DNA of 64,000 bases from an uncultured bacterium (GTDB lineage: Bacteria; Actinomycetota; Geothermincolia; Geothermincolales; Geothermincolaceae): assembly GCA_963814495.1 (NCBI GenBank), contig CAWFDJ010000016.1, forward strand, positions 28,106-92,105. The letters run 5' to 3'. Below, one piece after another: positions 11,914 to 44,595 of the stretch; the first letter of the stretch is position 1, and each line of letters starts with the position of its first letter. A program made the translations under genes and the position numbers. The notes beneath the pieces are model-generated. The model made no database searches and had not been told where the DNA came from. It saw only the letters and a program-made list of their open reading frames with translations.

Positions 11914-11957
11914 GTCAACTCCGATCGACCTTGGTGTGATGGTTCGATTAAAACAAG

Positions 11958-12002
11958 CCAGGTTTAAGCCTGGTTAAAGAGAAGGTTAAGGTTTGGTAAA
12001 GA
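11958..12002 (-). promoter_or_regulatory. PHO-box-like array: 3-4 direct repeats with 11-nt period (minus-strand units CTTTACCAAAC / CTTAACCTTCT / CTTTAACCAGG) upstream of pstS copy 1
   Basis: Read directly from sequence; 11-nt direct-repeat units are the known architecture of PhoP/RegX3 sites in actinobacteria; a similar array lies upstream of pstS copy 2. Confidence 0.4.
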
Positions 12003-12009
12003 CATGGGT

Positions 12010-12687: not shown

Positions 12688-12722
12688 TCTCCATCTACTC
12701 TCCCTCCATCCATGTCTCCGTT

Positions 12723-13486: not shown

Positions 13487-13493
13487 CTTGTGG

Positions 13494-14373
13494 TCAGGCT
13501 CTTGCACCGGTCTCACCGATACCTTTCTTCTTCTGGTAATATTTACCAAGCGCCCGGGCCGAGAAGTTGATGATCAGCACCATCAGCAGGAGGAAGGCGG
13601 CGCTTCCGCTCACCACCCTCGGATAGTCGGGGATGATCGCCTCCGACTGGGTGTACCAGATGTTCGAGGCCAGGGGCGCGGCGTTGCTGAAGGGGTTGAA
13701 GGAGGGGACCTTGCGGGTGATGAGCATCATCACGTAGATGAGCGAGGCCGACTCGCCCATGATCCTGCCCACGGTGAGCACGGTGCCGGCCAGGATGCCG
13801 GGCATGGCCGAGGGCAGCACCACCTGGCGGACGGTGTACCAGCGGCCGGCCCCCAGGCTGTGCGAGGCCTCGCGGTAGGTGTGGGGCACGCTGAGCATGG
13901 CCTCCTCCGCGCTGCGCATGAGCACCGGCAGGTTGAGCAGGGCCAGGGTGCAGGCCCCGGCCAGCAGGCAGGTCCCCCACCCCAGGTACATGGAGAAGAG
14001 GACCATGCCGAAGAGGCCGAAGACGATGGAGGGCAGGGAGGCCAGGCTGTCCGCGCAGAAGCGGACGAACCCGGTGAGCCTGCTCCCCTTGCGCGAGAAC
14101 TCCGCCAGGTAGATGGCCGCCCCCAGGGAGATGCGGCAGGACGATGACCAGGGTCCAGACCGCCAGGTAGACCGAGGAGACGATCATGGGGAAGATGCCT
14201 CCCCCCTCCCGCATGGCCTCCGGCTTCCCCAGGAAGAACGAGGGCTTGAGGGCGGTGGCCAGCCCCTGGGCGAAGATCTCCCCCAGGATGTAGAGGAGGA
14301 TGCCCATGGACAGCAGCCCCACCGCCCAGAAGGCGGCGGTGGCGGCGCGGTCGGTGGTCCGCTTGTCGATCAT
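13494..14373 (-). CDS. pstA: PstA, copy 2 (frameshift near 14000)
   Basis: MIDKRTTDRAATAAFWAVGLL.. N-terminus, C-terminal half in ORF 13494..14006 ..ARALGKYYQKKKG.. Confidence 0.8.
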
Positions 14374-19365: not shown

Positions 19366-20413
19366 CCGCCGGCTCCTCCCGGCCTTTCCGGCCGTCGCCC
19401 TGCTGTCCGCGCTGCTCGCGTTGTCCCTGCTGGTAACGGCCGGCTGCGGGGGCGGGAACGGCGGCGGCTCCGATAAGGGGAACATCGAGCTGCCCCAGTC
19501 CGCCCTGCTGATGCGCATCGCGGACTCCGTCGACACCAGCCGCATGGTGGATACCATCACCTACCTCTCCTCGCCCGAGCTCAAGGGCAGGCCGGCGGGC
19601 TCCCCCCAGAACGGGGAGGTGGCCGCGTACCTGGAGGGCGAGTTCCGCGACCTGGGGCTCGAGCCCTTCTCCGCCCTGGGCCTCACCGGGCTGCGCCAGG
19701 ACTTCCCGGTGCCGTCCTCCCGCTGCTTCCTGGAGAACCAACCCGCCGTCGAGGAGGCCCTGACCATATCCAACGTCATCGGGGTCATACCGGGCACCGC
19801 CCAGCCGGACCGCTTCGTCATCGTGGCCGCCAACTTCGACGGGCTGGGCGTGGACGCGGAGACCGGCGATTATTACCCGGGCGCCGACTTCAACGCCTCG
19901 GGGGCGGCCGCGGTGCTGGAACTGGCCCGGGCGATGGTCTCAGCCGGGGAAAAGCCCCTGGTCACCCTGGTCTTCGCGGAGCTCAACGCCGAGGAGTGCG
20001 GCTACTTCGGCTCGCGCGCCCTGGCCGAGGCCTGCGAGATGGAGGGCATGAAGGAGGCAGTGAAGGTCATCGACCTGGAAGGCCTGGCGGCCGGCAGCGG
20101 TGACTACATGGACGTCTGGGACCAGAACTACGTCAAGAACCGGCCCGTCGTGGACGCCGTCGACGACGCCTCCGCCTTCCTGGGGGTGGCCCTGGAGATC
20201 AACGGGACCGGCGCCGGCTCCGCCTCGTCCATCTTCTTCATCTACCACATGGCCTGCGTGACCTGCGACTGGTCGTGGTTCGAGCGGACCGACCACCCCG
20301 ACTTCCACAAGACCACCGATACCGTCGACCGCATCAACCAGGTGGGGTTGAGCGAGTCCACCCGGGTAGCGGGGGTGGCCGCCTGGCTCCTGGGCATCCG
20401 CGAAGCCGACTGA
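19349..20413 (+). CDS. M28-family peptidase-like lipoprotein (some canonical zinc ligands apparently substituted)
   Basis: Lipobox ..LLVTAGCGG.., ..NVIGVIPG.., ..GADFNASGAAAVLELARAM.., ..FAELNAEECGYFGSRALAE.. resembling M28 aminopeptidase blocks. Confidence 0.5.
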   Translation: MPRRNSRRLLPAFPAVALLSALLALSLLVTAGCGGGNGGGSDKGNIELPQSALLMRIADSVDTSRMVDTITYLSSPELKGRPAGSPQNGEVAAYLEGEFRDLGLEPFSALGLTGLRQDFPVPSSRCFLENQPAVEEALTISNVIGVIPGTAQPDRFVIVAANFDGLGVDAETGDYYPGADFNASGAAAVLELARAMVSAGEKPLVTLVFAELNAEECGYFGSRALAEACEMEGMKEAVKVIDLEGLAAGSGDYMDVWDQNYVKNRPVVDAVDDASAFLGVALEINGTGAGSASSIFFIYHMACVTCDWSWFERTDHPDFHKTTDTVDRINQVGLSESTRVAGVAAWLLGIREAD

Positions 20414-20436
20414 TACATCAACGTGTACAACGGGGT

Positions 20437-20449
20437 CACTCCCTGAGGG
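20437..20449. terminator. Short hairpin CTCCCTGAGGGAG between convergent genes
   Basis: Perfect 5-bp stem/3-nt loop read from sequence; weak evidence. Confidence 0.3.
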
Positions 20450-20460
20450 AGCGGCTTGCC

Positions 20461-20961
20461 CTAAGAGCCGGCCTTCTCCGCCATCTCGCGGGCGAAGGCG
20501 CGGGCTTTCTCCAGGCGCGACTCGTCGGGCTGCCCCATGGTCTCCGGCCGGCGCTCCCCGAAGGAGCGCATCATCTCGTCGTCGCTCTTGAGCAGCAAGC
20601 CGGCGATGCCCTCGGCCAGCTCACCCTGGCAGTCGAACAGGCCGGCCAGGGCGGCCCCGGACGCCGCTTCCCTGCACTTGTCCAGCCACTCCCCGACCCC
20701 CTCCTGGTCCTCGGGGGCGGCATGGGTGATGAAGAGCGCCACCTTCTTCCCCGCCGCCCTGGCGGCGAGGAACTCCTTCGCGCTGTTCTCCGGCCCGAAG
20801 GCGATGATGGGGAACCCGATGAAGGAGAGGTCGTACCCGTCCAGGCTCTCCACCTCCGATAGCTCCCTGAGCTCCTTCTCCCCGGGGATCTCCCCGTAGA
20901 TGGCCTCGGCGACCTTGCGCGTGTTGCCCGATTGCGAGACGTATGCGACTAGTGTCTTCAC
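20461..20961 (-). CDS. Flavodoxin
   Basis: MKTLVAYVSQSGNTRKVAEAIYGEI.. FMN-binding N-terminus; 166 aa. Confidence 0.7.
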   Translation of the reverse strand: MKTLVAYVSQSGNTRKVAEAIYGEIPGEKELRELSEVESLDGYDLSFIGFPIIAFGPENSAKEFLAARAAGKKVALFITHAAPEDQEGVGEWLDKCREAASGAALAGLFDCQGELAEGIAGLLLKSDDEMMRSFGERRPETMGQPDESRLEKARAFAREMAEKAGS

Positions 20962-21046
20962 GGCTGCTCCTCCTTTCAGACGGCCCGGCGATACCGATAA
21001 GACGATTCTATCACCAGCCGGGTCTGGAGGCCGTACCCGTCCAGGG

Positions 21047-22123
21047 TCAACTCAGGGTGTAGACGATGGTGGAGGGGTCCGGCTGCTCCCACCCGACTTC
21101 CGGCTTCCTCCCCTCCACGAACTGGTGGACGGCCTGCAGGTGCCCGGCCAGCAAGTGCCCGTTGAAGGGGTTCTCCACCGTCACCCGCCAGGTCCCGCCG
21201 GAGACGGAGCACTCCACCGGGTTGCCCTGCCCCCGCGCGGCGATGCTGCCCAGCAGGGAGTTGCAGAGCCCTTCCTTGTCCACGGCCGAGCCGTTGCACC
21301 CGGACGCCAGGTACCCCTCGCTCAGGGTGCGCAGGGAGACGGAGCGCTGGGCGTCGATGACCAGGGGGTAGATGTCGTCCCCCAGTTCCCTCGCCAGCTC
21401 GCGGATGACCACGTTGGGAGTGTAGGCGTCCAGGAAGACCATGCGCATGTTGCGCTCCGTGTCGATGATGAGGCCGTCGTTCTCGCGCCACTCCAGGCTG
21501 CCCAGCTCCACCGGCGTCTTGCACCTGGGGCAGCGCTCGAACTCGTGCCGGCCCTGCTTGATGGGCTGGAGGGAGAAGTCGAGGCGGGCCGCGATCTCCG
21601 GCTTGGCTTCCGCCGGCTCGATGCGGATGACGTCGTCCCCGTTCACCGATTTCCAGGTATAGCCGAAGGGCTGGCGCTCCAGGCATTCGAAGGAACCGCA
21701 GATGACCGCGGCCATCAGCTCGCGGTCGAAGGGGTTGCGGATGATGGCCTCACCGTAATCGCCGGCCTTGTACCCGATGGCCTCCGCGTAGCCCATGCCC
21801 GTGCCCACGGCGACCAGGCAGAAGGCCTTCACCATGAAGCGCTTGCCCCCCGGCAGGTGCCGTACCAGCTTGGCGGGGCCGATGAGGTTGGACTGGATGA
21901 CCCTGGTCGCGACGTTCCGTTCCGCCTCGAAGAAGAGGTGGCGCAGGGACACCCCCAGCTCCTGCTCGATGTTGGTCATGATCCGGGGCAGGGAGTCCGC
22001 CTCGAGGAGCAGGACGCGGAAGCTGGGGTTGAGGCGGATACAGATGGTGCCGTCGGGCCTCCAGCGTATCAGCTTGGAATACACGGCCGCGAAGCCGCAT
22101 TTACCGCACTTCCTGATCTTCAT
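21047..22123 (-). CDS. Hypothetical protein with two CxxC-initiated repeats (paralog of 35391..36512)
   Basis: ..KCGKCGFAAVYSKLIRWRPDGTI.. and ..ERCPRCKTPVELGSLEWRENDGLII.. halves; clear collinear similarity to ORF 35391..36512. Confidence 0.6.
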   Translation of the reverse strand: MKIRKCGKCGFAAVYSKLIRWRPDGTICIRLNPSFRVLLLEADSLPRIMTNIEQELGVSLRHLFFEAERNVATRVIQSNLIGPAKLVRHLPGGKRFMVKAFCLVAVGTGMGYAEAIGYKAGDYGEAIIRNPFDRELMAAVICGSFECLERQPFGYTWKSVNGDDVIRIEPAEAKPEIAARLDFSLQPIKQGRHEFERCPRCKTPVELGSLEWRENDGLIIDTERNMRMVFLDAYTPNVVIRELARELGDDIYPLVIDAQRSVSLRTLSEGYLASGCNGSAVDKEGLCNSLLGSIAARGQGNPVECSVSGGTWRVTVENPFNGHLLAGHLQAVHQFVEGRKPEVGWEQPDPSTIVYTLS

Positions 22124-22236
22124 CGGATGCCTCCTTTTGCTTCCCCGCTTTGCCCGATGCCGGATCCGGCTTGCTCTGTATTATACCTTTTCCGTGCGGC
22201 GGAATGAAGGTCGCCGGAGTAGTCGGCCGGGGGCCG

Positions 22237-23478
22237 CTAGATGTGGAAGTGCTCCACGCGGCGGCCTTCCGTCTCCCGCATGCGCTCGATCCACACGAAG
22301 GGGTGGTGGATCTCGTCGTAGGTGGGCAGGTTCTCCTCGTTCTTCCAGGCCAGGTTGAGGAACTCCACCCCCTCCTTCTCGGCCACCTCGCGGCAGAACA
22401 GCTCGCCGATCCGGTACTGCTGCAGCTTGAGGTCGAAGCCCAGCACCTTCTCGATGAAGCGCTCGGCCCCGGTCTTGGAATCGCGGCGCCGGGCGAAGGT
22501 CTCCTTCATCTCCTGGTAGGTGGGGAGGATCTCCTTGCCCACGCCGTCCATGACGAAGTTGCTGTACCCCTCCACCAGGGACATGAAGGCCTGGATGCGG
22601 GCCAGGATCTCCCGCTGCTCGGGGTTGTGCACCACCGAGAGGAGGCCCCCCTTGTTGATGATCTCGTTGAGCCGGGCCGAGTCCTTCAGCTCCGCGGGGG
22701 AGAGGCCGGGGAAGAGGCGGTTGCCCATCTCGTTCATGCGCACGGTCACGCTGGCGAAGTACTCCTCCATCATGCGGCGCATGAACCCCCGCAGCCACGG
22801 GAAGGCGGCGAACTCGAAGGCGTGGGTGACCTCGTGCAGGGTGATCCACAGGCGGAACTCCGCGGGTGAGAGACGCATGCGCTCCTCCGCCTTGAGCATG
22901 TTGGGGTAGACGATGTAGAGCTTGCCGGCGCCCTCCAGCTTGGGCAGGCCCAGGTCGAACTGGCCCAGGACGTTGCGGGACAGGTAGCCCATGACCAGGC
23001 CGATCTGCACGGTGAGCGCCCCCTTGGTGAAGTGCCGCGACACCCTGGCCGAGCGCTTGCGCCGGCTCTCCATCTTCTCCAGGGTCGCCGCGTAGCTGCG
23101 CGAGAAGGGCTCGAAGATGAGCTTGAAGCTCTCCAGGTTGGCGTGGATCCAGGCGGGGCGGTCCAGCACGAAGAGGTGCCCCAGGGGGTCCGCGGGGGTG
23201 AGGCCGGTGAAGCCCTCCACCAGCTCGCCCGAGCGCTCGGACATCTCCTGGAAGGAGGCCTCCACCTCCCGGCCCGCCGGTGGGGCGGCCGGCCCGCCGG
23301 ACAGCGACACGATGCCGGCGATGGACTCGGACTGGTCCCAGTCTATGAAGTCCGTCCCGGTGGGGCGGAAGGCGTCACGCAGCGAGCGGATGAGGGGCAT
23401 GCGCCCGGCCCATCTCTCCACGAACTCGTTGACGCCCCGGATACTCGCGTCCCAGGCGTTGTCGTTCTCCTTCTTCAT
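22237..23478 (-). CDS. Zinc-dependent metalloprotease (HExxH)
   Basis: ..LWITLHEVTHAFEFAAFPWLRGF.. HExxH motif; family commonly annotated as zinc-dependent metalloprotease in actinobacteria. Confidence 0.6.
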   Translation of the reverse strand: MKKENDNAWDASIRGVNEFVERWAGRMPLIRSLRDAFRPTGTDFIDWDQSESIAGIVSLSGGPAAPPAGREVEASFQEMSERSGELVEGFTGLTPADPLGHLFVLDRPAWIHANLESFKLIFEPFSRSYAATLEKMESRRKRSARVSRHFTKGALTVQIGLVMGYLSRNVLGQFDLGLPKLEGAGKLYIVYPNMLKAEERMRLSPAEFRLWITLHEVTHAFEFAAFPWLRGFMRRMMEEYFASVTVRMNEMGNRLFPGLSPAELKDSARLNEIINKGGLLSVVHNPEQREILARIQAFMSLVEGYSNFVMDGVGKEILPTYQEMKETFARRRDSKTGAERFIEKVLGFDLKLQQYRIGELFCREVAEKEGVEFLNLAWKNEENLPTYDEIHHPFVWIERMRETEGRRVEHFHI

Positions 23479-23522
23479 GCTTCGATTATAGGGACTGGGG
23501 GTGGATAAATGTAGGGGCGGGG

Positions 23523-24173
23523 TCAGCTCTTCAGCCCCTGCGCCCGCAGGTCCTCGAGGGCCTCCTCGAGGTAGGCGCCCCGACAGCGCCCCGCCCGGAC
23601 CTCCTCGATCAGTTCCTCCTCGGTTGAGAAGTCGCGCTCGAAGACGGTCAGGCACTTGCCCACGGCGTTCTTGACGTGGGCGTCACTCCCGCCCACCGAG
23701 ACCAGCCCCAGGCGCGCCGCCTTCTCCGCCGCCTGGTCGTTGAGGTCCCGCTTGCAGCCGGCGTTGTGGGTCTCCACCGCGTCCAGGCGGGCCAGGACCT
23801 CCTCCGAGGTGCTCCCCTTGTACTTGCGGTGGTGGCCCCAGTAGCCCCGGGTGGGGTGGGCGCCGATGATGACGCCCCCTTCCTCGCGTACCATGGCGTA
23901 GAGCTTCTCGAAGTCCATGTCCGGCTCCACCGGCGAGGAGACGCCGAAGACCAGCATGTCCCCTTGCGGCGTGTAGACCTCCACGCCCCGGAAGACCACC
24001 AGGGCGTGCTCGTGCGCCATGTCGTAGACTATCTGGGCCCCGCGGTGCACGGTATGCTCGGTCACCCCCACCCCGTCCAGGCCCAGCCCCATGGCGGCGG
24101 GGATGAGCTCTTCCGGTGAGAGCGCGCTGCAGCGGGATGAGCGGTTGGTGTGTATGTGCAGGTCTACTATCAT
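23523..24173 (-). CDS. PHP-domain metal-dependent phosphoesterase
   Basis: MIVDLHIHTNRSSRCSALSPEELI..GVTEHT.. ..GGSDAH.. PHP motifs. Confidence 0.7.
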   Translation of the reverse strand: MIVDLHIHTNRSSRCSALSPEELIPAAMGLGLDGVGVTEHTVHRGAQIVYDMAHEHALVVFRGVEVYTPQGDMLVFGVSSPVEPDMDFEKLYAMVREEGGVIIGAHPTRGYWGHHRKYKGSTSEEVLARLDAVETHNAGCKRDLNDQAAEKAARLGLVSVGGSDAHVKNAVGKCLTVFERDFSTEEELIEEVRAGRCRGAYLEEALEDLRAQGLKS

Positions 24174-24249
24174 CTTGCTGTTCCGTTACTATCGTGGCAA
24201 CCGGCGCTTAGTTTAGCATAGAATAGGGACACAGGGAAAGGAACGCCGC

Positions 24250-25841
24250 ATGCTCATAGCCATGGTCCACGGTTACTTTCTGCACGGCACGGGGAGCAAC
24301 CTCTACGTGCAGAACCTCTGCCGGGAGTTCTGCCGCCTGGGCCACGAGGTCCACCTCTTCTGCCAGGAGAGCGCGCCCGGCGATTTCGACTTCGTGGCGC
24401 GCGCCTACGAGTTCCCCGCGGACAACCTCGAGCCCTCAAAGGTCCTCGACCGGGAGACGCCCTACGCGGGCAAGTGCGTGGCCTTCCGCCCCGACCTGGG
24501 CGGGCTGCTGCCCGTGTACGTCTACGACGATTACGAGGGATACACGGTGAAGGAGTATCCCGACCTCACCCGGGACGAGCTGGAGGGTTACCTGGAGCGC
24601 AACCGCCTGGCGCTGACCCACGTCTTTCAAGGGCGCCGGCCCGCCCTGGTGCTCTCGCAGCACACCATCATGCAGCCGGTGTACGCGGCGCGCGCCCTGC
24701 GCGGGGCGGGGACGGGCGGGACGCGCCACTTCATGACCGTGCACGGCAGCTGCCTCAACTTCTCGGTGCGGCGCTCAGAGACGCTCCAGGAGTACGCGCG
24801 CGAGGCGGTGGGGGCGGTGGACCGCGTCATCTGCGTGAGCGAGGCGGGGCGCCGGGAGTTCGTCGAGTTCTTCTCCGCTGTTGAGGGCGTCGAGACGCGG
24901 TCGCGGGTCATCCCGGTGGGGGTGGACATGGAGAAGTTCGTCCCCCTGGAGATGCGGGAGGAGAAGCAAGCGCGCATCGACAGGCTGCTGGAGGGCCTGG
25001 AGTCCGCGGGCGCGGGCGGGGCGGGAGCGGCACGCGGGAGATGGAGGTGGACCCGGGGGCGGCCGAGGAGCTCTCCGCGGTGGACTGGGCGCGCGACCCC
25101 ATCGTCGTCTACAACGGCAAGTTCCTGTGGACCAAGGGGGTGCAGGTGCTCCTGGCGGCGGCCCCCCTGATACTGGGGCGCCACCCCCGCGCCCGCTTCG
25201 TCCTGGTGGGCTTCGGCTCCCAGCGCCACTGGCTGGAGGAGATCGTCCACGCCCTGGACTCGGGCGACCTGGACCGCCTCCGCCTGCTGCTGCTGCGCCC
25301 CTGGGAGCTCTACCCCGAGATAGACCCCGACGCCTCCCGGTATCTCGAGGGGCTGGTGGAGGCGCTGGAGGACGAGACCTTCCGCGAGGATTATCTCAAG
25401 GCCGCGTCCGGGCGCCTGTGCGAGCGGGTCATCTTCACCGGCTACCTCTCCCACGACCTCCTGAAGGACCTGCTGCCCTGCGCCGAGGTGGTCACGGCCC
25501 CCTCGGTCTTCCCCGAGGCCTTCGGCCTGGTGGCGGTGGAGGCGCTGGCCTGCGGGGTCATCCCCCTGCTGGCCAACCACTCCGGCTTCTCCCAGGTCAT
25601 CCGGGACGTGGTGGACGAGTTCGCCGGCACCTTCGACGAGGTGAGGTTCAAGCCCCTCTTCCTCGACGAGGACCTGGCCCTCAACCTGGCCAACAACATC
25701 AACACCTTCCTGGAATATTACGGAGAGATGTACGCGCAGGAGCGCCGCTCCATCCGCCGGCGCGCCCGGGCCCTGGCCGAGACCAAGTACGCCTGGCCCT
25801 CCATCGCCGCCGCCTACCTGGAGCTGGCCGGCAGGAGGTGA
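24250..25841 (+). CDS. GT4-family glycosyltransferase (frameshift near 25040)
   Basis: N-terminal GT-B half (24250..~25040) and C-terminal half ..FGLVAVEALACGVIPLLANHSGF.. (EX7E-like) in ORF 25041..25841. Confidence 0.7.
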
Positions 25842-25956
25842 CGGCGGGGCCTTATGCCCGCCCTTTACCCCTTCATGCCTGGTTAACTTGGCGCCGGGCC
25901 ATCTGCTATGCTGGATGGGGAAGAGAGGCTTTTTCTTTTAAAGGAGTGGTGGAGAT

Positions 25957-27765
25957 GAAGGCCTTGCGCGTGTCGATCATCGTGACCCTGGCCCTGGCGA
26001 CGCTGGCGTTCTTCCCGGTTGCCGCGCAGGCCGCGGTGCCCGACAAGCCCACGGCCGTCTCGCCCAACTGGGGGGCCCTGGACGTGCCGGTCAACCCCGC
26101 CCTGTCAGGCTCCGCTTACTCCGGCACCGGGACCCACACTGAGACGCAGTGGCAGGTGGACGACTGCTACGAGTTTACTTCCCCCGACTGGTACCGCACC
26201 TCCTCAGGCCGAGGTCCAGACGGTGGTCAACGCGGCCAACGGCACCTTCGCCGACTCCCTGGCCGGCAGGACCAGCCTGGACGAGAACGAGCAATACTAC
26301 TGGAGGTTCCGCTACTCCAACGACAGCGGACAGCTGGAGCGAATGGTCCGACTACCGCTTCTTCATCACCACCACCACCACCTGGTACCTGGCGGAGGGG
26401 AGCACCGCCGGGGGCATGGAGACCTGGGTGCTGGTGCAGAACCCGGGCGACACCGACGCGGTGGTGGACATCGACTTCCAGACCGGCGAGGGGCCGGTGG
26501 CGGGGCCGCAGGGCGACGTCATCCCCCCCAACAGCCGCCGCTCCTACTCCGTGGGCTCCTACGTGACCACCTACGACGTCTCGACCAAGGTGACCGCCAC
26601 CTCCGGCACGGTCATCTGCGAGCGCGCCATGTACGGGCCGGGGCGGGCCTGGGGCCACGACTCCATCGGGGTCACCACCCCCCGCATCAACTGGTACCTG
26701 GCGGAGGGGGCCACGGCGGGCGGCATGGAGACCTGGGTGCTGGTGCAGAACCCCAACGCCTCGGCGGTGACCGTGGACCTCACCCTGCAGACGGAGGCCG
26801 GCGCCCTGTCGCCGCCGGCGCTGCAGGACGTGGACATCCCCGCCGCCAGCCGCCGCTCCTTCAACCTCGGCCTGTACGTGGAGACCTATAACGTCTCCAC
26901 CAAGGTCGCCTCCAGCGGCGCTGTCATCTGCGAGCGCGCCATGTACGGCAACGGGCGCGCCTGGGGGCACGACTCCATCGGCGCCCCTTCCTATACCTTC
27001 ATGTGGCTGTTCGCGGAGGGGTGCACCGGCGCGGGCTTCGAGACCTGGGTGCTGGTGCAGAACCCCATGAGCTACCAGCAGGAAGTGGCCCTGTTCTTCT
27101 CCGACGAGGTCGGCCCCATCGCCGTCTACCCCCGGTTCAACGTCCCGGCCAACTCGCCGGATGTCGGTGAACGTCGGGGACTACGTGCAGTCCTACAACG
27201 TGGCCGTCACCGCGGTCACCTGGAACGAGGCCGGCGGCACAATCGACACCGGCGGCAAGATCATCTGCGAGCGGGCCATGTACGACAGCGGCCGCACCTG
27301 GGGGACCGACTCCATCGGCATTCCGGGCATTGCGGCGCCGTTCTGGGCCCTGCCCGAGGGGAGCACCGCCGGGGGCATGGAGACCTGGGTGCTGGTGCTC
27401 AACCCCAGCTCGTCCGAGGCCGCTACCGTCAGCCTGGTGTTCATGACCGACGCCGGCATCGTCATCCCGCCGGAGCTGCAGGGCGTGGCCCTGCCGGCCT
27501 TCTCGCGCCGCTCCTTCAACGTCGGCGACTACGTGCAGACCTTCGACGTCTCCACCCTGGTGGACGCGGCCGACCCGGTGGTGTGCGAGCGCGCCATGTA
27601 CGGCCCCGGCCGGGCCTGGGCCCACGACTCCATCGGCTACATCCTGGGCTGGGGGGGTATCTCGTCCGCGTCGCGGGCTACTCCGCGGCCGGCCTGGGCG
27701 GCGAAGGCGCCACGCAGGTCGACCCGGCCGCCTGGCTCGACGGCTTCCGCGCCGCCGCCCGCTAA
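25957..27765 (+). CDS. Secreted protein with 4 tandem ~105-aa repeats of an unrecognised domain (repeat protein 1; several frameshifts)
   Basis: Signal peptide MKALRVSIIVTLALATLAFFPVAAQA; repeats begin at ~26383, 26689, 27003, 27339 with W[YF]LAEG.T.GG.ETWVLVQNP ... VICERAMYG ... W.HDSIG; ends at TAA 27763..27765 abutting a palindrome. Confidence 0.65.
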
Positions 27766-27788
27766 ATTTGGGGTCAGACCCCAAATTT
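27764..27788. terminator. Perfect palindrome AAATTTGGGGTCAGACCCCAAATTT at 3' end of repeat protein 1
   Basis: Read directly; near-identical copy at 29793..29816 after the paralogous gene. Confidence 0.5.
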
Positions 27789-27937
27789 AGTCCGGCCACA
27801 CAGCCTTGCGCGGCGCTTGGCTTGCTGCTATGATCTAATCAGCCGGGTGGGCGAGAAGAGCGCGAGTTCTTCCACCCGGCTTTTCGTTTTCCGTGGGAAG
27901 GCCCGTTGCTCGTTCCGTCACAGAGGAGGTAAAACGC

Positions 27938-29793
27938 ATGCACAAGTCCGCTGGCCCGTTCGTACGTTTTCTCGTCCCGATAACCGTCATCTTGATGGCC
28001 CTGTCGTGCCTGGCGCTGACGCGGGCGTCTCCATCGCCGCGCCCGCCGCCCCGACATTGATCTCGCCCGAGACGACTCGGTCGACCGTACCCGTCAATCC
28101 CGCCCTGCAGGCATCCGCCTATTCCGGCTACCCGGCTCACCAGGCCACCCAGTGGCAGATCGACGACATGCAGCGATTTCTCCACGCCGGAGTGGACCCG
28201 CGTCTTCCTCCGGCCGGAGACGCAGGTCCAGGTCAACGCGGCCAACGGGACCTTCGCCAACGAATGCGCCGGCAGGTCCAGCCTCGAGACGAACATGAGC
28301 TACTTCGGTGGAGGGTGCGCTACCAGGACACCAACAGCGACATGGAGCCCCTGGAGCGCTACCGGCTTCTTCGTCACCGCCACCGACACCTGGTACCTGG
28401 CGGAGGGATGCACCGCCGGCGGTTTCGAGACCTGGGTGCTGGTGCAGAACCCGGCGGATGAACGATGCCAGTCGTCAACATCCAGTTCCAGACGGACACC
28501 GGGACCGGTCTCGCCCCCCGCGCTGCAGAACCTGACCATCCCGGCCTAACAGCCGCCGCTCCTTCAACGTGGGAGTCTACGTGACCACTTACAACGTTTC
28601 CACCAAGGTCACCGCCACCCAGGGGACCATCGCCTGCGAGCGCGCCATGTACGGCCACGGGCGGGCCTGGGGGCACGACTCCATCGGGGTCACCGCCCCC
28701 TCGAGCACCTGGTACCTGGCGGAGGGGTGCACCGCCGGCGGCATGGAGACCTGGGTGCTGGTACAGAACCCCAACGCCACCGCGGTCACCGTGGACCTGT
28801 CCTTCATGACCTCCACGGGCTCCGGTCCCCGGTCCTCAGGATTACACGGTACCCGGCATATTCCCGGACGTCCTTCAACGCTCGGGGACTATGTCAGCGA
28901 CTACAACGTCTCTACTCAGGTCATTTCCTCCGGAGGAGACGTCATCTGCGAGCGGGCCATGTACGGCAACGGGCGGGCCTGGGGCGCACGACTCCATCGG
29001 CGTCACCCAGGCCGGCCTGCGGGTGGGTCTTCGCGGAAGGGTGCACCGCGGGCGGCATGGAGACCTGGATACTGGTGCAGAACACCCAGTTGAAGACGCC
29101 AGGACGTAAGGGCTTACGTGATGGACGATCCAGGACGGTGCTGGGGTACATCCCGATGACCGTCGGCGCCCGGCTCGCGTTCCTCGCTCAACGTCGGCGA
29201 CTACGTGCGAGTCGTACAGCGTCTCCTTCATCGTCGTCACCGTGGACGCTGCCGGGGAATACGACGATACCGGCGAGATCGTCTGCGAGCGGGCCATGTA
29301 CGGCAACACGCGCGAGTGGGGACACGACTCCATCGGCGCCGCCTTCCCCTGCCCGGTCTGGACCCTTCCCGAGGGCTGCACCGCGGGCGGCTTCGAGACC
29401 TGGGTGCTGGTGCCTGAATCCCATAGACGAAGCCCAGTACGTGGACGTGTCCTTCATGACCGACGAGCGGGCAGGTCGAGCCGCCGGACTGCAGGACATG
29501 TACCATGGAAGCCTTCTCGCGCAAGTCCATCAACGTGGGGGCTTACGTCAACACTTACGACGTCTCCACCGTCGTCGTAGGCGGACGACTCGTCGTCTGC
29601 GAGCGGTCCATGTACGGCTACGGCCACGCCTGGGCGCACAACTCCATCGGTTACCCCATGGGATTACGGGGACCCGCTGTCGATGACGTCGGTGTCCGCG
29701 TCTTCCGGCTCAGCCGGTTATCTCCGCGGCGAACTGCGACGGCTACTGGACGGGGTCCCGCGCCTCTACCCGCGCTGAACCTCACGCCGACTA
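27938..29793 (+). CDS. Repeat protein 2, tandem paralog of 25957..27765; reading frame broken at least 8 times (pseudogene or repeat-induced assembly errors)
   Basis: RBS GAGGAGG + ATG 27938, signal peptide MHKSAGPFVRFLVPITVILMALSCLAL; N-terminal ..VPVNPALQASAYSG..TQWQIDD.. matches protein 1; four WYLAEGCTAGG[FM]ETWVLVQNP repeats at ~28389, 28709, 29024, 29357. Confidence 0.45.
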
Positions 29794-30976
29794 AATTTGG
29801 GGTCTGACCCTAAATTCAGTAACTCGACGAGGTCGTAGACGGGCAGGCCGCCGGACGCGCGGGAGGTGTCGCCCAGGTTGGCCTCGCAGAAGGGGCAGCA
29901 GGTGACCAGGGCCTCGGCCCCGGTGTCCGCGGCCTCCTCCAGGCGCGCCGCCGCCAGTTCCGCCGCGAAGGAGCCGTGGGCGGTGCGCACGCCGCCGCCC
30001 GCCCCGCAGCAGAGGGAGTTCTCGCGGACGCGCTCCATCTCCACCAGCTCCAGGCCGGGGATGGCCTCGAGGACGCGCCGGGGCGCGTCGAAGACGCCGC
30101 CGTGGCGCCCCAGGTGGCAGGGGTCGTGGTAGGTGACCCGCATCTTCACCTCGGGCGGCTCCAGCTTCCCCTCCTCCAGCATCCTCACGAGGAACTCGGA
30201 GAGGTGCAGCACTTCCGCGTCCAGCGCCCCCAGCTTGGGGTACTCGTGCCGGATGATCCCGTAGCACCCGGCGCAGGCGGTGATGATGGTCGACGCGCCG
30301 CAGCGCGCGAAGGTCTCCAGGTTGCGCCGGGCCAGGTCCTCGTAGAGCCCGCGCTCCCCCACCCGCAGGGCGGTGGAGCCGCAGCAGGCCTCGTCCTTGC
30401 CGAGGATGCCGAAGTCCACGCCCATCCTCTGCAGCAGCTCCGCCGTGGCCACCGCCACCGGCTGGGCCGCGGCCACGTAGGCGGCGGTGCATCCCGGGTA
30501 GTAGAGGACCTCCGCCTGCTCCCGCGGCAGGGTCTTCAGGCGCAGGCGCTTGGCCCAGCGGTCGCGCGACTGGCGCGGCTGCATCCAGGGGTTGTCGTAG
30601 TTGATCACGCTCTTGAGCAGCGCCTCCTGCGCCTCCAGGGGGCCCAGTCCTTCCCGCACCGCCAGGCGCCTCACCTCCATCAGCAGCTCGGTCACCTGGA
30701 TGCCCATGGGGCAGCGCGACTTGCAGGAGTAGCACTGCGAGCAGTAGTAGAGCACCTCCGGCCGGAGGACCTCCTCCTTCCGGCCCAGTTGCAGCAGGCG
30801 CACCAGCTGGCGGGGGGTCACTTCCCAGGCCCGGGCGGTGGGGCAGGAGCCCACGCAGGTGCCGCACTGCATGCAGGAGAAGAGCTTCTTCCCCGCCTCG
30901 GTCTCGCACAGCAACTCGCCGAAGAAGCCCGGCTCGCTGCCGTCCAGCTTCAAGGTGTGGTCGTCCATCATCCATC
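29766..30976 (-). CDS. HdrD/GlcF-like Fe-S oxidoreductase: 2 x [4Fe-4S] ferredoxin motifs + 2 CCG domains
   Basis: CMQCGTCVGSCP and CSQCYSCKSRCP; CCG motifs ..YYPGCTAAY..CCGS.. and ..YHDPCHLGRH..CCGAGGG..; ATGA start overlap with hdrA stop. Confidence 0.75.
29793..29816. terminator. Near-perfect palindrome AAATTTGGGGTCTGACCCTAAATT (copy of 27764..27788)
   Basis: Read directly; lies between convergent repeat protein 2 and the hdrD-like gene, which reads through it. Confidence 0.45.
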
Positions 30977-32926
30977 TCCCGGAGTCAGCGCGTCGATCTG
31001 GTCCAGCAGGACGTCGTCGCCCAGGTTGAGCACCTGCAGGGCGCCCGAGAGGCACTGCACCACGCAGAGTCCGCAGCCCTTGCACAGCACCTCGTTCACC
31101 TTGACCAGGCCCTCCTCCTCTTCCGAAAGGGTCAGCGCTCCGTAGGGGCAGGCTTCTACGCAGAAGCCGCAGCCGCGGCACAGCTCCGTCTCGGCCACCA
31201 CCACCGCCGCCTCCACCTCGACCTCCCCCGCGGCCAGCAGGGCCAGCGCTTCCGCCGCCCCGGCCGAGGCCTGGGCCACCGCGTCGGGGATGTCCTTGGG
31301 CCCCTGGCAGCACCCCGCCACGAAGACGCCGGCGGCGGAGGTCTCCACCGGGCGCAGCTTGGGGTGGGCCTCCAGGAAGAAGCCGTCCGAGTCCCGCGCC
31401 ACCGCGAAGAGGCGCGCCAGTCCCTCCGACTCACGGCGCGGCTCCACCGCGGTGCCCAGCACCACCAGGTCCACGTCCACCTGCACCGGCCGGCCCAGCA
31501 GGGTGTCCTCGGCGTAGACGCGCAGGCGGTCGCCGGCCCGCACCACCTCCGAGCACTTGCCGCGGGTGAAGACCACCCCGTCCTCCCGCACGCGCTGGTA
31601 GAACTCCTGGTAACCCTTGCCGAAGGCCATCACGTCGATGTAGAACTCGTACACCTGCGCGCCGGTCTTCTCCCGCGCCAGGTGGGCCTGTTTCATGTTG
31701 TACATGCAGCAGATGCGCGAGCAGTAGGGGTGCTGGTTCTCGTCCCGGCTGCCGATGCAGTGGAGGAAGGCGATGGCCCGCGGCTCGCTCCCGTCCTTCT
31801 TCAGGATGCGCCCCCCGGTGGGGCCGTTGGAGCTGGAGAGGCGCTCGAACTCCAGGCCGGAGATGACGTCGGGGTAGCGGCCGTAGCCGTACTGGGGCAT
31901 GGCCGCGGCGTCGAAGAGGTCGTACCCGGTGGCCAGCACCACCGCCCCCACCTCCAGGTCCAGGAACTCCTCCTCCTGGTCGAAGTCGATGGCGCCGGGC
32001 GCGCACGCCTCCAGGCACTTCTGGTTGCACTTGCCCTTGGTGAAGTGGAGGCAGCTCTCCGGGTCCACCACCGCCGAGAGCGGCACCGCCTGGGGGAAGG
32101 GGATGTGGATGGCGGAGCGGGCGGCCAGCCCCGCCTCGAATTCCGAGGGGACCTTGCGGACGGCGCAGACCGCCGAGCACTCGCCGCAGCCGGTGCAGGC
32201 CCTGGCGTCCACGTAGCGCGGGCGGCGGCGCACCAGCACCTTGAAGTTGCCCACGTACCCCTCCACCTTCACCACCTCGCTCGAGGTGAGGATGTCGATG
32301 TTGCTGCGGCGCGCCGCCTCCACCATCTTGGGGGTGAGGATGCAGGCCGAGCAGTCCAGGGTGGGGAAGGTCTTGTCCAGCTGGGCCATGTGCCCGCCGA
32401 TGGAGGCGTCCTTTTCCACCAGCCAGACCTGGTAGCCCGCCTTGGCCAGGGTGAGGGAGGCCTGGATGCCGGCGATGCCCCCGCCCACCACCAGGGCGGC
32501 CGGGGTGACCAGCGTCCGCCGCCGCCTTAAGGGCCGCAGGCGCGCCGCCTTGGCCACCGCCGCCCTGACCAGGTCGGCGGCCTTGCGGGTGGCCTCGCCC
32601 CGGTCGTCGTGCACCCACGAGCACTGCTCGCGGATGTTGGCCACCTCCAGGCAGTAGGGATTGATGCCCGCGTCCTCCAGGGCGGCGCGGAAGGTGGGTT
32701 CGTGCATGCGCGGGGAGCAGGCGGCCACCACCACCTTCTCGATGCCTTCCTCGCGGATGTCCCGCTTGATGAGGCCCTGCCCCGCGTCGGAGCACATGTA
32801 GTCGTAGGTGCGGGCCACGCGCACGCCGGGCAGCTCGCGGGCCAGGCGAGCCAGTTCCTCGCAGTCCACGCTCGCCGCGATGTTGGTGCCGCAGTGGCAG
32901 ATGTAGACGCCGATGTCCTTCTTCAT
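30968..32926 (-). CDS. hdrA: HdrA-like FAD-dependent Fe-S oxidoreductase (QmoB-like); all-Cys, no Sec
   Basis: 652-aa intact ORF; N-terminal ..VYICHCGTNIA..CSDAGQ..; FAD-binding GGGIAGIQASLTLAKAGYQV; C-terminal two ferredoxin motifs CRGCGFCVEACP / CKGCGLCVVQC. Confidence 0.75.
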   Translation of the reverse strand: MKKDIGVYICHCGTNIAASVDCEELARLARELPGVRVARTYDYMCSDAGQGLIKRDIREEGIEKVVVAACSPRMHEPTFRAALEDAGINPYCLEVANIREQCSWVHDDRGEATRKAADLVRAAVAKAARLRPLRRRRTLVTPAALVVGGGIAGIQASLTLAKAGYQVWLVEKDASIGGHMAQLDKTFPTLDCSACILTPKMVEAARRSNIDILTSSEVVKVEGYVGNFKVLVRRRPRYVDARACTGCGECSAVCAVRKVPSEFEAGLAARSAIHIPFPQAVPLSAVVDPESCLHFTKGKCNQKCLEACAPGAIDFDQEEEFLDLEVGAVVLATGYDLFDAAAMPQYGYGRYPDVISGLEFERLSSSNGPTGGRILKKDGSEPRAIAFLHCIGSRDENQHPYCSRICCMYNMKQAHLAREKTGAQVYEFYIDVMAFGKGYQEFYQRVREDGVVFTRGKCSEVVRAGDRLRVYAEDTLLGRPVQVDVDLVVLGTAVEPRRESEGLARLFAVARDSDGFFLEAHPKLRPVETSAAGVFVAGCCQGPKDIPDAVAQASAGAAEALALLAAGEVEVEAAVVVAETELCRGCGFCVEACPYGALTLSEEEEGLVKVNEVLCKGCGLCVVQCLSGALQVLNLGDDVLLDQIDALTPGDG

Positions 32927-38428: not shown

Positions 38429-38446
38429 ATGGAAGGTAGGAGGCGG

Positions 38447-39868
<1,422 letters not shown>

Positions 39869-39872
39869 ACAG

Positions 39873-41803
39873 TTGCAGGGCCTGATCATCGGCACCGCCG
39901 GCCATATCGACCACGGCAAGACCCAGCTGATCAAGGCCCTCACCGGCACCGACACCGACCGCCTCAAGGAGGAGAAGGAGCGGGGCATCTCCATCGAGCT
40001 GGGCTTCGCCGAGTTCCCCCTGCCCGACGGCACGCCGGCCGGGGTGGTGGACGTCCCCGGGCACGAGCACTTCGTCAAGAACATGCTGGCCGGGGCCACC
40101 GGTTTCGACCTGGTGCTGCTGGTGGTGGCGGCGGACGACGGGGTGATGCCCCAGACCCGCGAGCACCTGGCCATCATCGACCTGCTGCAGGTGCGCGAGG
40201 GGCTGGTGGTCGTCACCAAGGCCGACCTGGCGGACTGAGGAGATGGTCGAGCTGGTGCGGGAAGAGGTGGGCGAGCTGCTGGCCGGCACCACCCTGGAGG
40301 AGGCGGAGGTCATCACCACCTCCACCGTCACCGGGCAGGGCCTGGACGAGCTCAAGGCAGGCGCTGATGCGCGCGGCCGGGCGGGTGCGGGCGCGCCGGG
40401 GCGACGGGCCCTTCCGCCTGCCGGTGGACCGGGTCTTCACCCTGAAGGGCATCGGCACGGTGGTCACCGGGACGCTGTGGGAGGGTTCCGTCTCCGACGG
40501 GGACGAGGCCGTCCTCGAGCCGCAGGGCCGGGCGGTGCGCGTGCGCAACGTGCAGGTGCACGGGAAGGAAGTGGAGGCGGCGCTGGCCGGACAGCGCGTA
40601 GCGCTCAACCTGCCGGGCATCGCCGTCGAGGAGATCGACCGCGGCGACGTGGTGGTGAGCGCGGGGTACCTCTCCCCCACCTTCATGGTCGACGCCCGCC
40701 TGCACCTGCTGGAGAGCGCCCCGCGCCCCCTGAAGAACCGCTCCCGCATCCGCTTCCACCACGCCACCCGCGAAGTGCTCGGACGGGTGGTCCTGCTGCG
40801 GGAGGCGCGGGAAGGACAGGAGGTACAGGAACTGGCCCCGGGGGCCAGCGCTTACGTCCAGTTCCGCCTGGAGGCCCCGGTGGTGGTCAAGTACGGGGAC
40901 CGTTTCATCCTGCGCAGCTACTCCCCCGTCACCACCATCGGCGGCGGGCAGGTGCTCGACTCCCATCCCCCGAAGCACCGCCGGGTCGACCAGGGCCTGC
41001 TCGAGGCGCTGGCCGTGCGGGAGCGGGGGGAGGTCTCGGGGGTGCTCCAGTCCGTCTTCGACGGGCGGGGGGTGCCGCTCGACCTGGAGAGCCTGGAGCG
41101 CCTGAGCGAGATGGACCCGCAAGCTGTCCGCGCCACGGCGGAGGAGATGCTGCGGGAGGGGACCTGGCGCGGCATACCTTCCGAGCGCAAGGCCAAGCTG
41201 ATGCCCGTCAAAGATGTACGACGCTTACGCGGAGAAGATCACGGGGCTGCTGAAGTCCTTTCACCAGGCCAATCCCAGGGAAGCAGGCATGGAGAAGGAG
41301 ACCCTGCGCACCCGTCTCTCGCGCACCCTGCCCGCGGGTGATTTCGACGCCATGCTCAAGCTGCTGGCAGGAGGGGGGCGCCGTGACCGTCAAGGAGGGC
41401 AGGGTGTCCATCCGGGGCGAGGGCCGGGCGCTCACTTCCGACGAGGAGCCGGGAGAAGCAGGCCGTTCTTGCCGATATCGAGGCGGGCGGCTTCGCGCCC
41501 CCCTTCCTCAAGGAGTTGGCCGAGGCGCACCGCCTGGACGCCCGCAAGGCGCGGGACTTCATCGGCATGCTGATGGAGGAAGGGGCCATCGAGCAGGTGA
41601 CGCAGGATTACTACCTGGCCCGCGGCAGGCTGGCCGAAGCGGAGGAGGGCATCCGCGCCTTCCTGGCCGCACACGGCCGCCTGGAGGTCAAGGACCTCAA
41701 GGAGATGTACGGCCTGACGCGCAAGTACTCCATCCCCCTGCTCGAGCACTTCGACAGGTCCCGGGTGACGCGGCGCGACGGCGATTACCGCGTGTTATGG
41801 TGA
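39873..41803 (+). CDS. selB: Selenocysteine-specific elongation factor SelB (about 5 frameshifts; TTG start)
   Basis: [25 protein letters not shown] (G1), DVPGHE (G3), ..VVTKADL (G4), beta-barrel domains, C-terminal winged-helix domains ending ..[10 protein letters not shown]. Confidence 0.8.
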
Positions 41804-42040: not shown

Positions 42041-44595
42041 CTACCGCGGGTAGCCGATGGAGTCGGTGGCCCAGGTGCGGCCGTTCCCGTACATCGAGCG
42101 CTCGCAGATGACCCCGCCGCCCGAGGATACGACCTCCGTCGAGACGTTGTAGTCGGTCACGTAGTCGTTGACCTTGAAGGTGACCCGGGAAAAGCCGGGG
42201 ATGTTCACGTCCTGCGGTCCGGCTACGTACCCCGAACCTGTCATGAAACCGAGGTCCACGGTCACGGCTCCGCTGTTGGGGTTCTGCACCAGCACGAAGG
42301 TCTCCATGCCCCCGTCGGTGGAACCCTCCGCCAGGAACCAGACGTCGGAGGCGGCAGCGGTGGTCCCGATGGAGTCGTGGGCCCAGGCGCGGCCGTTGCC
42401 GTAGACCGAGCGTTCGGCGATGACCGGGATGCTGCCGGAGACCGCCGGTGGACACGTTGAAGTCGGTGACGTAGTCGTTGACCTTGAAGGTGACCCGGGA
42501 ATAGGCGGGTATGGTCACGTCCTGCGGGCCGGGCACCACCCCGGCGCCGGTCATGAAGTCCAGGTCGACCAGGGCAGCGGACGAGTAAGGGTTCTGCACC
42601 AGCACGAAGGTCTCCATGCCGCCGTCGGTGGAGCCCTCCGCCAGGAACCAGAGGTCGGAGGGGACGGTGACCCCGATGGAGTCGTGGGCCCAGGTGCGCC
42701 CGTTGCCGTAGACGGAGCGCTCGCAGATGACGTCATCCGTGGCTTCCACTACGGTGGAGACGTTGTAGTCGGTGACGTAGTCGTTGACCTTGAAGGACGC
42801 GCGGGATTGGGCCGGGAGGGTGTAGACCGGCGGCCCGGGCTCCGCGCCCGCGCTGGTCATGAAGTCCATGTACACGTCCACCGGGTAGGCGTTGGGGTTC
42901 TGCACCAGCACGAAGGTCTCCATGCCGCCGTCGGTGGAGCCCTCCGCCAGGAACCAGAGGTCGCTCGGGTCGGTGACCCCGATGGAGTCGTGGGCCCAGG
43001 CGCGCTCGTTCCCGTAGACCGAACGCTCGCAGATGACGTTGCCCCCGGCCGGGGTGACCTTGGTGGACACGTCGAAGTCGGTGACGTAGTCGTTGGCCTT
43101 GATGGTGACGCGGGAGTTCGCCGGGACGAGGACGTCGTTCAGGGCTCCGGGAGCCACGACCCCGCTTCCGGTCATGAAGGTGACGTCAACCGTGACGTCG
43201 TCGGCGTTGGGGTTCTGCACCAGCACGAAGGTCTCCATGCCGCCGTCGGTGGAGCCCTCCGCCAGGTACCAGGGGGCGCCGTTGTAGACCTCCTCTGTGT
43301 AGAGGATGCCGTCGACGAAGCCCGGCCCGCCGCCGATGCCGTCCCAGGCGACGCGGGGGTTGCCCAGCGGGTCCACCGCGATCACCGGGTACGACTCCGA
43401 GCACTCCGAGAGCATCACCGGCGCGGACCAGCCGCCCCCCCGGTTGGCCGAGTACCAGACGTCAAGCCCGCTTGCGCCGTTGCTCCACACCCAGACCACC
43501 TGGGGATAGCCGTCCTCGCCCACGGCTATCTCGGGCATGTGGTTGGTGTCGCTTGAGGGGTCGAGGTTGAGCGGGGTGGTCCAGCCGCTGCCGGGGTCGG
43601 TGGTGTAGAAGGTCCCTTGGTGCGTGCCGTCGAACCCGCTCCAGACGACGTGCGGGTGCCCGGCCGGGTCCACCGCCATCCGCGCGTGATCAAAGTCCGT
43701 TATGCCGGCGGCCACGTTCACGGGGGCGGACCAGCCGGTCCCGGGGTTGGCGACGTAGTGGATCCCCTGGGGGGAGGAGCTCACCTCCCACATCACGTGC
43801 AGGCCGTCCAGGTCGTCGACGACCAGGGTCGGGTAATAGCCGATGACGGTGCCGGAGATGCTCACCGGGGGGGTCCAGAGCCGGAGGGCGCGGCGGTGGA
43901 GTAGAAGACCCGGGGGGACCCGTCGCTGCCGTACCAGACCACGTGGAGGTTCCCCGTCGAGTCCACCCCGATCTTGGGGCGCTGGTTGTCCGTGGTCCCC
44001 GACGACAGGTCCAGCGGCACCGACCAGCCTCCTCCGATGTCCCTGGTGAAGTAGGTCCTGATCACCGCGGAGTAGGTGCCCTTGAAGACGACGTAGGCCC
44101 CGTCCCCGTCCACGGCGATGTCGGGGGCGGCGTTGTCCACGGAGGGGCCGGCCGAGGAGAGGTTGACCGGGGCCGACCATCCCGCCTCACCCAGGGTGGA
44201 GTAGAGGACGTGCACGCTGGAGACGGAGTACTCGCACCAGACCACGTGGGGGCTGCCGTCCGGCCCCAGGACCATCTTGTAGTCGTCGGGGTCCTCGTCG
44301 GTGCCGGTCGAGACGATGGCCGGCTCGGACCAGCCCGAGCCCAGGTTCTCGGAGTAATAGAGGTCCAGACCGTGCCCGCCTGGCCCTTCCAGAGGACGTG
44401 GGTGCCCCCCTGGCCGTCCACGGCGATCTGCGGTGACTGGTTGCTGGTGATGGTGTCGGAGGAGATGTTCACCGGCTCCGACCACCCGGGCGACGCGACC
44501 GCGCTCGAACCGCCCAGCATCATCCCCGCCGACGCCAGCATCATCACCGCTGTCAACAGGGCCAGCCTCGTCTTGATCCTTGTTCTACCTCGCAC
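42041..44595 (-). CDS. Secreted protein: signal peptide + BNR-like (GWSxP) beta-propeller repeats + 5-6 C-terminal copies of the ~105-aa WYLAEG repeat (repeat protein 3; frameshifts)
   Basis: GTG start with RBS AAGGAGGT; MRGRTRIKTRLALLTAVMMLASAGMMLGGSSAVASPG; ~8 units of ..G.GWS.P..LS..(P.IAVD..G..HVVW); then W[YF]LAEGSTDGGMETFVLVQNP..VICERSVYG..WAHDSIG repeats; ends ..DSIGYPR*. Confidence 0.65.

Follow-up and report, generated by a model that had tools for sequence, protein, structure and literature searches.

We analysed a 64,000-nt stretch of DNA, referred to below as the window (positions 28,106 to 92,105 of contig CAWFDJ010000016.1, assembly GCA_963814495.1; G+C content 67%), from an uncultured bacterium of the actinobacterial class Geothermincolia. 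The genes in question are a tandem pair encoding repeat proteins (genes 1 and 2) and a third paralogue on the opposite strand (gene 3). As a preliminary description of this DNA had correctly laid out, both tandem genes start with a signal-peptide-like segment that is followed by an N-terminal module, by our count of ~110 amino acids (aa), and by four repeats with conserved W, AEG, ICER and HDSIG blocks; the additional paralogue that it mentioned is also present (Table 1). Repeats are ~105 aa long in all three genes. A hidden Markov model (HMM) made from five repeat units and run over the six-frame translation of the window found 12 units and nothing else, four in each gene. The 32-mer GGCATGGAGACCTGGGTGCTGGTGCAGAACCC, said to recur 7 times, indeed has 7 plus-strand matches between 26413 and 29085 when up to 3 mismatches are tolerated, and 4 more on the minus strand between 42279 and 43241, where chance predicts none; 2 of these 11 matches are exact and the remainder carry 1–3 mismatches.

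Neither tandem gene is spanned by a single open reading frame (ORF), and their products were therefore reconstructed by frameshift-aware alignment of intact homologues. Corrected in this way, gene 1 is identical at 521 of 600 residues to its intact 603-aa orthologue P0001, and gene 2 at 366 of 596 residues to P0006 and at 276 of 346 to P0120. Residues 2–19 of P0001, in the signal-peptide region, are modelled as a helix, and the C-terminal tail of gene 1 (~40 aa) has low model confidence with a short helix at its end.

Table 1. Genes and sequence features of the repeat-protein locus, in window coordinates
Feature	Position	Strand	Basis or remark
Zincin_2 metallopeptidase-like gene	22237..23655	-	Pfam PF10103, 282.6 bits
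GT4 glycosyltransferase, directly upstream of gene 1	24250..25841	+	Pfam Glyco_transf_4 and Glycos_transf_1
Gene 1, FN3-like domain and four ASRAH units	25955..27765	+	603 codons after 4 frame corrections
Gene 1 signal peptide MKALRVSIIVTLALATLAFFPVAAQA	25955..26032	+	Likely cleavage after AQA; read from sequence
Gene 1 N-terminal FN3/Ig-like domain	26033..26382	+	
Gene 1 ASRAH tetrad	26383..27655	+	Repeat HMM; Pfam DUF5719 E = 2.8e-17; model pLDDT >90 in repeats
Gene 1 ASRAH units	26383-26691, 26692-27003, 27004-27343, 27344-27655	+	Repeat HMM
Gene 1 stop codon TAA	27763-27765	+	
Palindrome AAATTTGGGGTCAGACCCCAAATTT, copy 1	27764..27788		Overlaps gene 1 stop codon; -26.1 kcal/mol, z-score -3.9
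Gene 2, paralogue with the architecture of gene 1	27938..29778	+	~605 codons after at least 20 frame corrections
Gene 2 ASRAH tetrad	28391..29672	+	HMM fragments in three reading frames, joined by frameshift-aware alignment
Gene 2 ASRAH units, approximate	28391-28709, 28710-29023, 29024-29358, 29359-29672	+	
Palindrome AAATTTGGGGTCAGACCCCAAATTT, copy 2	29793..29817		Just past gene 2, where the convergent HdrD-like gene ends; about -18 to -20 kcal/mol
Gene 3, signal peptide, BNR-like propeller repeats (GWSxP motif) and C-terminal ASRAH tetrad	~44619 to 42041	-	~3 frameshifts
Gene 3 ASRAH tetrad	43271-42041	-	Ends 3 residues before the stop

The repeat is a known, functionally uncharacterised domain and not a new family, as it is already recorded both in Pfam (PF18986, DUF5719) and in the literature, under the name ASRAH (PMC2739507). 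Scored as whole proteins against PF18986, for which the curated gathering cut-off is 26.2 bits, the repeats of gene 1 reach 63.2 bits and those of gene 3 reach 59.8 bits; isolated units match the profile on their own in 35 of 37 cases. The match spans approximately positions 47–250 of the 319 in the profile, with consecutive units matching and the two profile ends unmatched. The claim that the repeat was unrecognised is overturned by this result, a confident match to a described domain being exactly what the preliminary description had named as evidence to the contrary.

Structure prediction led to the same superfamily. An AlphaFold model of P0001 based on a 28-sequence alignment had a mean predicted local distance difference test score (pLDDT) of 82.5 and a predicted template modelling score (pTM) of 0.80, with pLDDT >90 in all four repeats. 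The predicted fold of the repeat, an eight-stranded beta-sandwich, matches PDB entries 1NC7 (TM1070) and 2II7 (ASRT), and Foldseek agrees with that match (probability 1.00, target-normalised TM-score ~0.75). The connection to these two entries was made by structure comparison alone, since searching the sequences of PDB chains with P0001 found nothing. A match to PF07100 (ASRT) was seen in 1 of 37 units (E = 0.021), and NCBIfam gave only noise for both the repeat and the N-terminal module.

The ASRAH superfamily was defined by De Souza, Iyer and Aravind (Biol Direct 2009; PMC2739507), who recognised three families: solo proteins of the cytoplasm that form tetramers, ASRT and TM1070 among them; secreted tetrads of Chloroflexi fused to N-acetylmuramoyl-L-alanine amidases; and secreted dyad lipoproteins of actinobacteria, linked to WhiB, a glycosyltransferase and an inactive zincin. 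They predicted that ASRAH domains bind sugars in a cleft on one sheet to which the dimer interface contributes, proposed that the tetramer is reconstituted in dyads and tetrads, and likened the domain to CBM4. The hallmarks given there, a Trp that opens strand 1 and a near-invariant Asn that closes strand 2, correspond to the W of WYLAEG and the N of LVQNP in our repeats and are present in 12 of 12 window units. Across a 37-unit alignment (A2), W1, E5, G6, N20, R52 and E80 are invariant. In our literature search the name ASRAH occurred only in the 2009 paper, apart from unrelated name matches, and no paper mentioned DUF5719. A paper on the fungal lectin CML1, in which TM1070 is only a weak structural neighbour, was not used as evidence for sugar binding.

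We then turned to the distribution of the four-domain module, or tetrad. Corrected gene 1 gave 1506 matches at E <= 1e-5 in a protein search, and a profile search of 1.84 billion cluster representatives gave 7805 proteins at E <= 0.001, with 2880 at E <= 1e-30. Exactly four units are present in 116 of the 120 closest homologues; of the others, three have three and one has two. The position counts that follow refer to the 116. In 81 the tetrad follows a passenger and forms the very C-terminus, and in 12 it precedes the passenger, for example in P0002 (Amidase_3) and P0025 (Peptidase_M23), while 15 proteins consist essentially of the tetrad and 8 have a short C-terminal tail like that of genes 1 and 2. 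By a crude test, 89 of the 116 begin with a signal-peptide-like segment. Enzyme passengers confirmed by Pfam are Amidase_3, Peptidase_M23, Peptidase_C39_2, Metallophos with 5_nucleotid_C, GH39/GH10 (P0004) and Abhydrolase_6; other confirmed passengers are Vgb_lyase/SGL propellers, DUF11, TIG and a PcRGLX-like domain (P0089).

The number four also appears in larger proteins. Among the best 150 of the 7805 cluster representatives, 114 have four matched stretches and six have eight. Seven proteins of up to ~2000 aa (P0121, P0122, P0124, P0129, P0147, P0181 and P0202) contain eight or nine matched units and appear to carry two tetrads in one chain, which supports four as the structural unit. Tetrad genes occupy 392 loci in one-genome-per-species data. 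The 78 of these that were listed lie in metagenome-assembled genomes (MAGs) labelled Actinomycetota or "uncultured bacterium"; finer labels among them are Candidatus Geothermincola, Solincola, Geothermincolia and Anoxymicrobiaceae, with one Acidimicrobium ferrooxidans and one Acidimicrobiales, and 16 of the 78 come from a single MAG, which has at least that many loci. Earlier descriptions cover neither the FN3-tetrad proteins nor so wide a set of passengers, and the extended use of the module on many passengers in Geothermincolia-type Actinomycetota may be new.

Comparison of individual units suggests how tetrads evolve. For the four tetrad positions in turn, the best match in another protein was at the same position in 80, 79, 90 and 95 of the 116 homologues, where 29 would be expected by chance, and yet units are more alike within a protein (65–68% identity) than between proteins (51–52%). 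Taken together, these two patterns suggest that tetrads are passed from gene to gene as blocks, with homogenisation of the units inside each gene. The units of gene 3 are 74–79% identical in DNA sequence and share exact runs of 33–65 nt, above the values for genes 1 and 2; this likeness, with the within-protein identity over the 116 homologues, suggests concerted evolution of the tetrad through intragenic gene conversion.

Among known systems, the closest is the Chloroflexi amidase-associated tetrad (PMC2739507), which is likewise secreted, consists of four consecutive ASRAH domains with the conserved W and N, and shares with the proteins described here a predicted ability to bind sugar or peptidoglycan. 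Close paralogues of the window genes are also fused to Amidase_3, for example P0002, P0014 and P0023. The fusion is constant in Chloroflexi, however, whereas here it is confined to some paralogues; in Pfam searches genes 1–3 were without an amidase domain, and their tetrads are preceded by an FN3-like domain or a BNR-like propeller. The lineage differs as well, being Geothermincolia-type Actinomycetota, and the set of partners is far wider. With the actinobacterial dyad lipoproteins, on which DUF5719 is based, the window genes share a PF18986 match above the cut-off and a partly similar neighbourhood, with a glycosyltransferase, here of type GT4, and a zincin-like gene. The GT4 and Zincin_2 genes of the window echo the linkage reported for the dyad family (PMC2739507). 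Unlike the dyads, our proteins have four domains and leave the N- and C-terminal extensions of that family unmatched. Inspection by eye of the gene 1 signal peptide (...VAAQA|AVP) revealed no lipobox Cys, and the Cys of gene 2 lies inside the hydrophobic region at a position that is unconserved in orthologues. A WhiB gene neighbours the dyads, but a motif search of the window for G[VI]WGG found none.

There are differences from the solo proteins too. TM1070 and ASRT are cytoplasmic single-domain proteins of ~115–125 aa with only 14–19% identity to the repeat, and in the window repeats both the H and the C of their cleft motif SHExxCxxN are replaced (ETWVLVQN). A purely functional analogy may be drawn with SLH and CWB2, cell-wall anchoring modules of Firmicutes (PMC8942822, PMC4973711), whose reported use parallels the deployment of one fixed repeat module on many paralogues here. 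Pfam and fold searches found no sequence or fold relationship between these modules and the tetrad, which is made of four beta-sandwich domains.

We favour, with moderate confidence, a reading in which ASRAH tetrad proteins are surface proteins, the tetrad serves as a glycan-binding wall anchor, and the frameshifts discussed below are errors. The products of genes 1–3 would be exported by the Sec pathway and belong to the cell envelope of a Geothermincolia-type actinobacterium, each with four consecutive eight-stranded beta-sandwich ASRAH domains of the TM1070/ASRT type, and the four covalently linked domains would pack as one pseudo-tetrameric glycan-binding body. This arrangement is proposed because solo members form homotetramers in which the ligand cleft is lined by the subunit interface; the pTM of the P0001 model and the analogy with the TM1070 tetramer are consistent with it. 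The glycan bound would be part of the cell's own wall, either peptidoglycan or a secondary polymer, perhaps the product of the adjacent GT4 enzyme, which is a possible functional partner of gene 1. A glycan of the own wall seems the most likely ligand because the same module is found on many unrelated exo-enzymes, and the pattern of passengers as a whole suggests a cell-wall anchoring module. The tetrad would act as a non-covalent surface anchor, holding exo-enzymes and structural proteins in the manner of SLH and CWB2. Genes 1 and 2, in which an FN3-like domain is the only passenger, would for that reason be structural or adhesive surface proteins.

Several points weigh against this reading. 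The pTM is the only ground for the packing that comes from the proteins themselves. The link to ASRT comes from the predicted structure of an orthologue and from published profile searches, and a sequence-only profile of alignment A2 retrieved no PDB chain at E values up to 10, leaving 1NC7 and 2II7 unreached. Our literature search found no experiment on any secreted ASRAH protein, and a further search on the surface biology of Geothermincolia returned nothing specific. Fusions with GH10/GH39 and with the PcRGLX-like lyase would be compatible, too, with a carbohydrate-binding module that targets substrates. A bolder version of our reading, in which the tetrad is the general non-covalent wall anchor of Geothermincolia and related deep-branching Actinomycetota and thus their equivalent of SLH or CWB2, the pseudo-tetramer binds a secondary wall polymer made by the GT4 enzyme, and the FN3-tetrad proteins of genes 1 and 2 are major structural components of the surface layer, is more doubtful and is put forward only tentatively.

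If the tetrad were a carbohydrate-binding module, it would direct enzymes to plant or microbial glycans in the environment and would not anchor them to the cell's own wall. The glycan-active partners just mentioned, and a fold that was predicted to bind sugars and compared with CBM4, are what one would expect in that case, but many partners have no polysaccharide substrate (5'-nucleotidase, C39-like and M23 peptidases, alpha/beta hydrolase, propellers, and Ig/TIG arrays), and the tetrad is also present on peptidoglycan hydrolases that act on the own wall. The number of loci in one MAG and a fixed terminal position that resembles anchoring modules argue in the same direction, and we consider a substrate-targeting role unlikely.

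Less probable again is a module for protein–protein assembly, either in a surface-layer (S-layer) lattice or by scaffold docking, with genes 1 and 2 encoding lattice or scaffold subunits. Tetramer formation by solo members of the fold (PMC2739507), the tetrad-only homologues, the FN3-like domain as sole companion of the tetrad in genes 1 and 2, and the greater likeness of units within than between proteins would all be compatible with assembly. Against this, our analysis gave no sign of lattice formation, the cleft-strand motif ETWVLVQN and the published context point to a small-molecule or sugar ligand, and the adjacent GT4 gene is better explained by a glycan partner.

Genes 1 and 2 are distinct paralogues. 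P0001 is intact, 603 aa in length, and 86% identical to gene 1 over its full length. The N-terminus of gene 2 (MHK/MRR...LMALSCLAL) is common to P0006, P0011 and P0120; its C-terminus (...PRLYPR) is also found in P0006, while P0011 has another C-terminus and P0120 breaks off after 349 aa. Intact orthologues of genes 1 and 2 are 603–605 aa long. The existence of separate intact orthologues, P0001 for one gene and P0006 and P0120 for the other, excludes the alternative raised in the preliminary description, that the pair is a single gene collapsed or misassembled into two. Tandem order is kept in two other assemblies. In one, L001 (MAG MFD04716.bin.1.266), the HdrD-like and HdrA-like genes that come after the pair in the window come after it there too; the other, L079 (ENA ERZ25039527 contig_42011), the most closely related assembly and the one that served for the comparison at the DNA level, is colinear with window positions 20001–29778 at 88% nucleotide identity. 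Separate orthologues and conserved order together indicate that genes 1 and 2 are old paralogues.

The surroundings of the pair are partly conserved. A Zincin_2 neighbour recurs in the P0001 contig, L001 and L079, and the GT4 neighbour recurs in the P0001 contig and L079; upstream of the pair, L001 has a different membrane-protein ORF. In the P0001 contig an intact 533-aa GT4 gene precedes the P0001 gene and another gene follows it. L079 contains a third tandem FN3-tetrad paralogue after gene 2 (11933–13756), at the place where the window runs into the convergent HdrD-like gene, and copy number at this locus therefore varies between close relatives.

The frameshifts in genes 1 and 2 most likely reflect a noisy assembly with errors in its consensus, and not biology. 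Gene 1 has 4 (near 26201, 26322, 27157 and 27675) and gene 2 has at least 20, mostly single extra bases. The preliminary description had explained them by conservation of the repeats at the DNA level. DNA identity between units is only 56–79%, however, and the longest exact runs common to units are 32–43 nt in gene 1, 26 nt or less in gene 2 and up to 65 nt in gene 3; with identity this low and shared runs this short, DNA repetition does not account for the frameshifts. For the same reason the locus can be called recombinogenic, as it had been, in no more than a weak sense, with gene 3 offering the longest runs. In the alignments of genes 1 and 2, frameshift sites coincided with neither the conserved 32-mer nor homopolymers, and in gene 2 four lie in the N-terminal domain and three in the C-terminal tail, outside the repeats. 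Programmed frameshifting and phase variation were rejected as explanations, as ~20 scattered sites share no motif.

Disruption of reading frames is not confined to the tetrad genes. The GT4 gene is split by one frameshift near 25100, its orthologue being the single 533-aa protein noted above, and ORF translations inspected by eye place the SelB GTPase region of SelA/SelB (38429–41341) in a different frame from the remainder of the gene. A frame plot of G+C content at third codon positions (GC3) displays short frame segments that cluster at several places in the window, such as 2835–4305 and 43900–45800. The related assemblies L001 and L079 are fragmented as well, and alignment of the window with L079 has 235 gap positions over 9.9 kb. 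The window looks like an error-rich assembly, probably a long-read one, in which local error density is very uneven.

Once corrected, gene 2 has no in-frame stop and keeps the six invariant positions in 4 of 4 units, and it is because every invariant residue survives that its frameshifts look like assembly errors. Mismatches between gene 2 and L079 amount to 12.8%, 9.9% and 24.1% at codon positions 1, 2 and 3, and the corresponding values for gene 1 are 10.5%, 8.1% and 20.2%; in both genes the third position thus has about twice the mismatch of the first, and a greater excess over the second. A point that tells against error as the cause is the uneven density of frameshifts, which uniform random error does not predict: there are 0 in the ~3.1 kb of adjacent Hdr-like ORFs, 4 in gene 1 and at least 20 in the 1.8 kb of gene 2. 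Such a distribution, and the fact that the pair is broken in L001 and L079 too, could mean that gene 2, and perhaps gene 1 as well, is truly a pseudogene in decay whose frameshifts are biological. We give this only a slim chance. Points against decay are that the corrected gene is free of stops, that family-invariant residues are kept in all four units, that the third-position excess follows one pattern in genes 1 and 2, that the indels mostly consist of one extra base, that frameshifts also strike unrelated genes of the window, and that L079 is in pieces along its whole length.

Several further features accompany the three genes. Convergent to gene 2, at 29766–32926 on the minus strand, lie ORFs for an HdrD-like CCG/4Fe-4S protein and an HdrA-like flavoprotein, the latter identified by reading its sequence; both are intact and have no evident functional link to the tandem genes. 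Directly upstream of gene 3, ORFs at 44062–45799 (minus strand) resemble by eye an ApbE-type flavin transferase (IIDLGGVAKGYAADAAV) and seem to be split by frameshifts. The near-perfect 25-nt palindrome AAATTTGGGGTCAGACCCCAAATTT follows each of the tandem genes, and folds as a stable hairpin, with z-scores of -2.9 to -3.9 over the two copies and no U-run after it in the sequence shown. The copy at the stop codon of gene 1 is probably a hairpin of the terminator type; the element might terminate transcription in both directions or be a short repeated sequence.

That the repeat is a truly new domain family without described relatives, as the silence of NCBIfam and of sequence searches against PDB chains might suggest, is very improbable, being refuted by the PF18986 score, the fold match to 1NC7 and 2II7, and the description of 2009. 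Because the domain is not new, the original claim carries little weight; the wider pattern is what deserves to be recorded. A four-domain module represented by ~7800 protein clusters at 50% identity decorates dozens of distinct secreted enzymes in an uncultured class of anaerobic actinobacteria. If its proposed role as a wall anchor is true, the tetrad would represent a new type of Gram-positive surface-display system and could serve in practice as a marker from which the surface proteome of these organisms is predicted; secreted members of the superfamily, to which the Anabaena rhodopsin transducer also belongs, would then have their first tested function.

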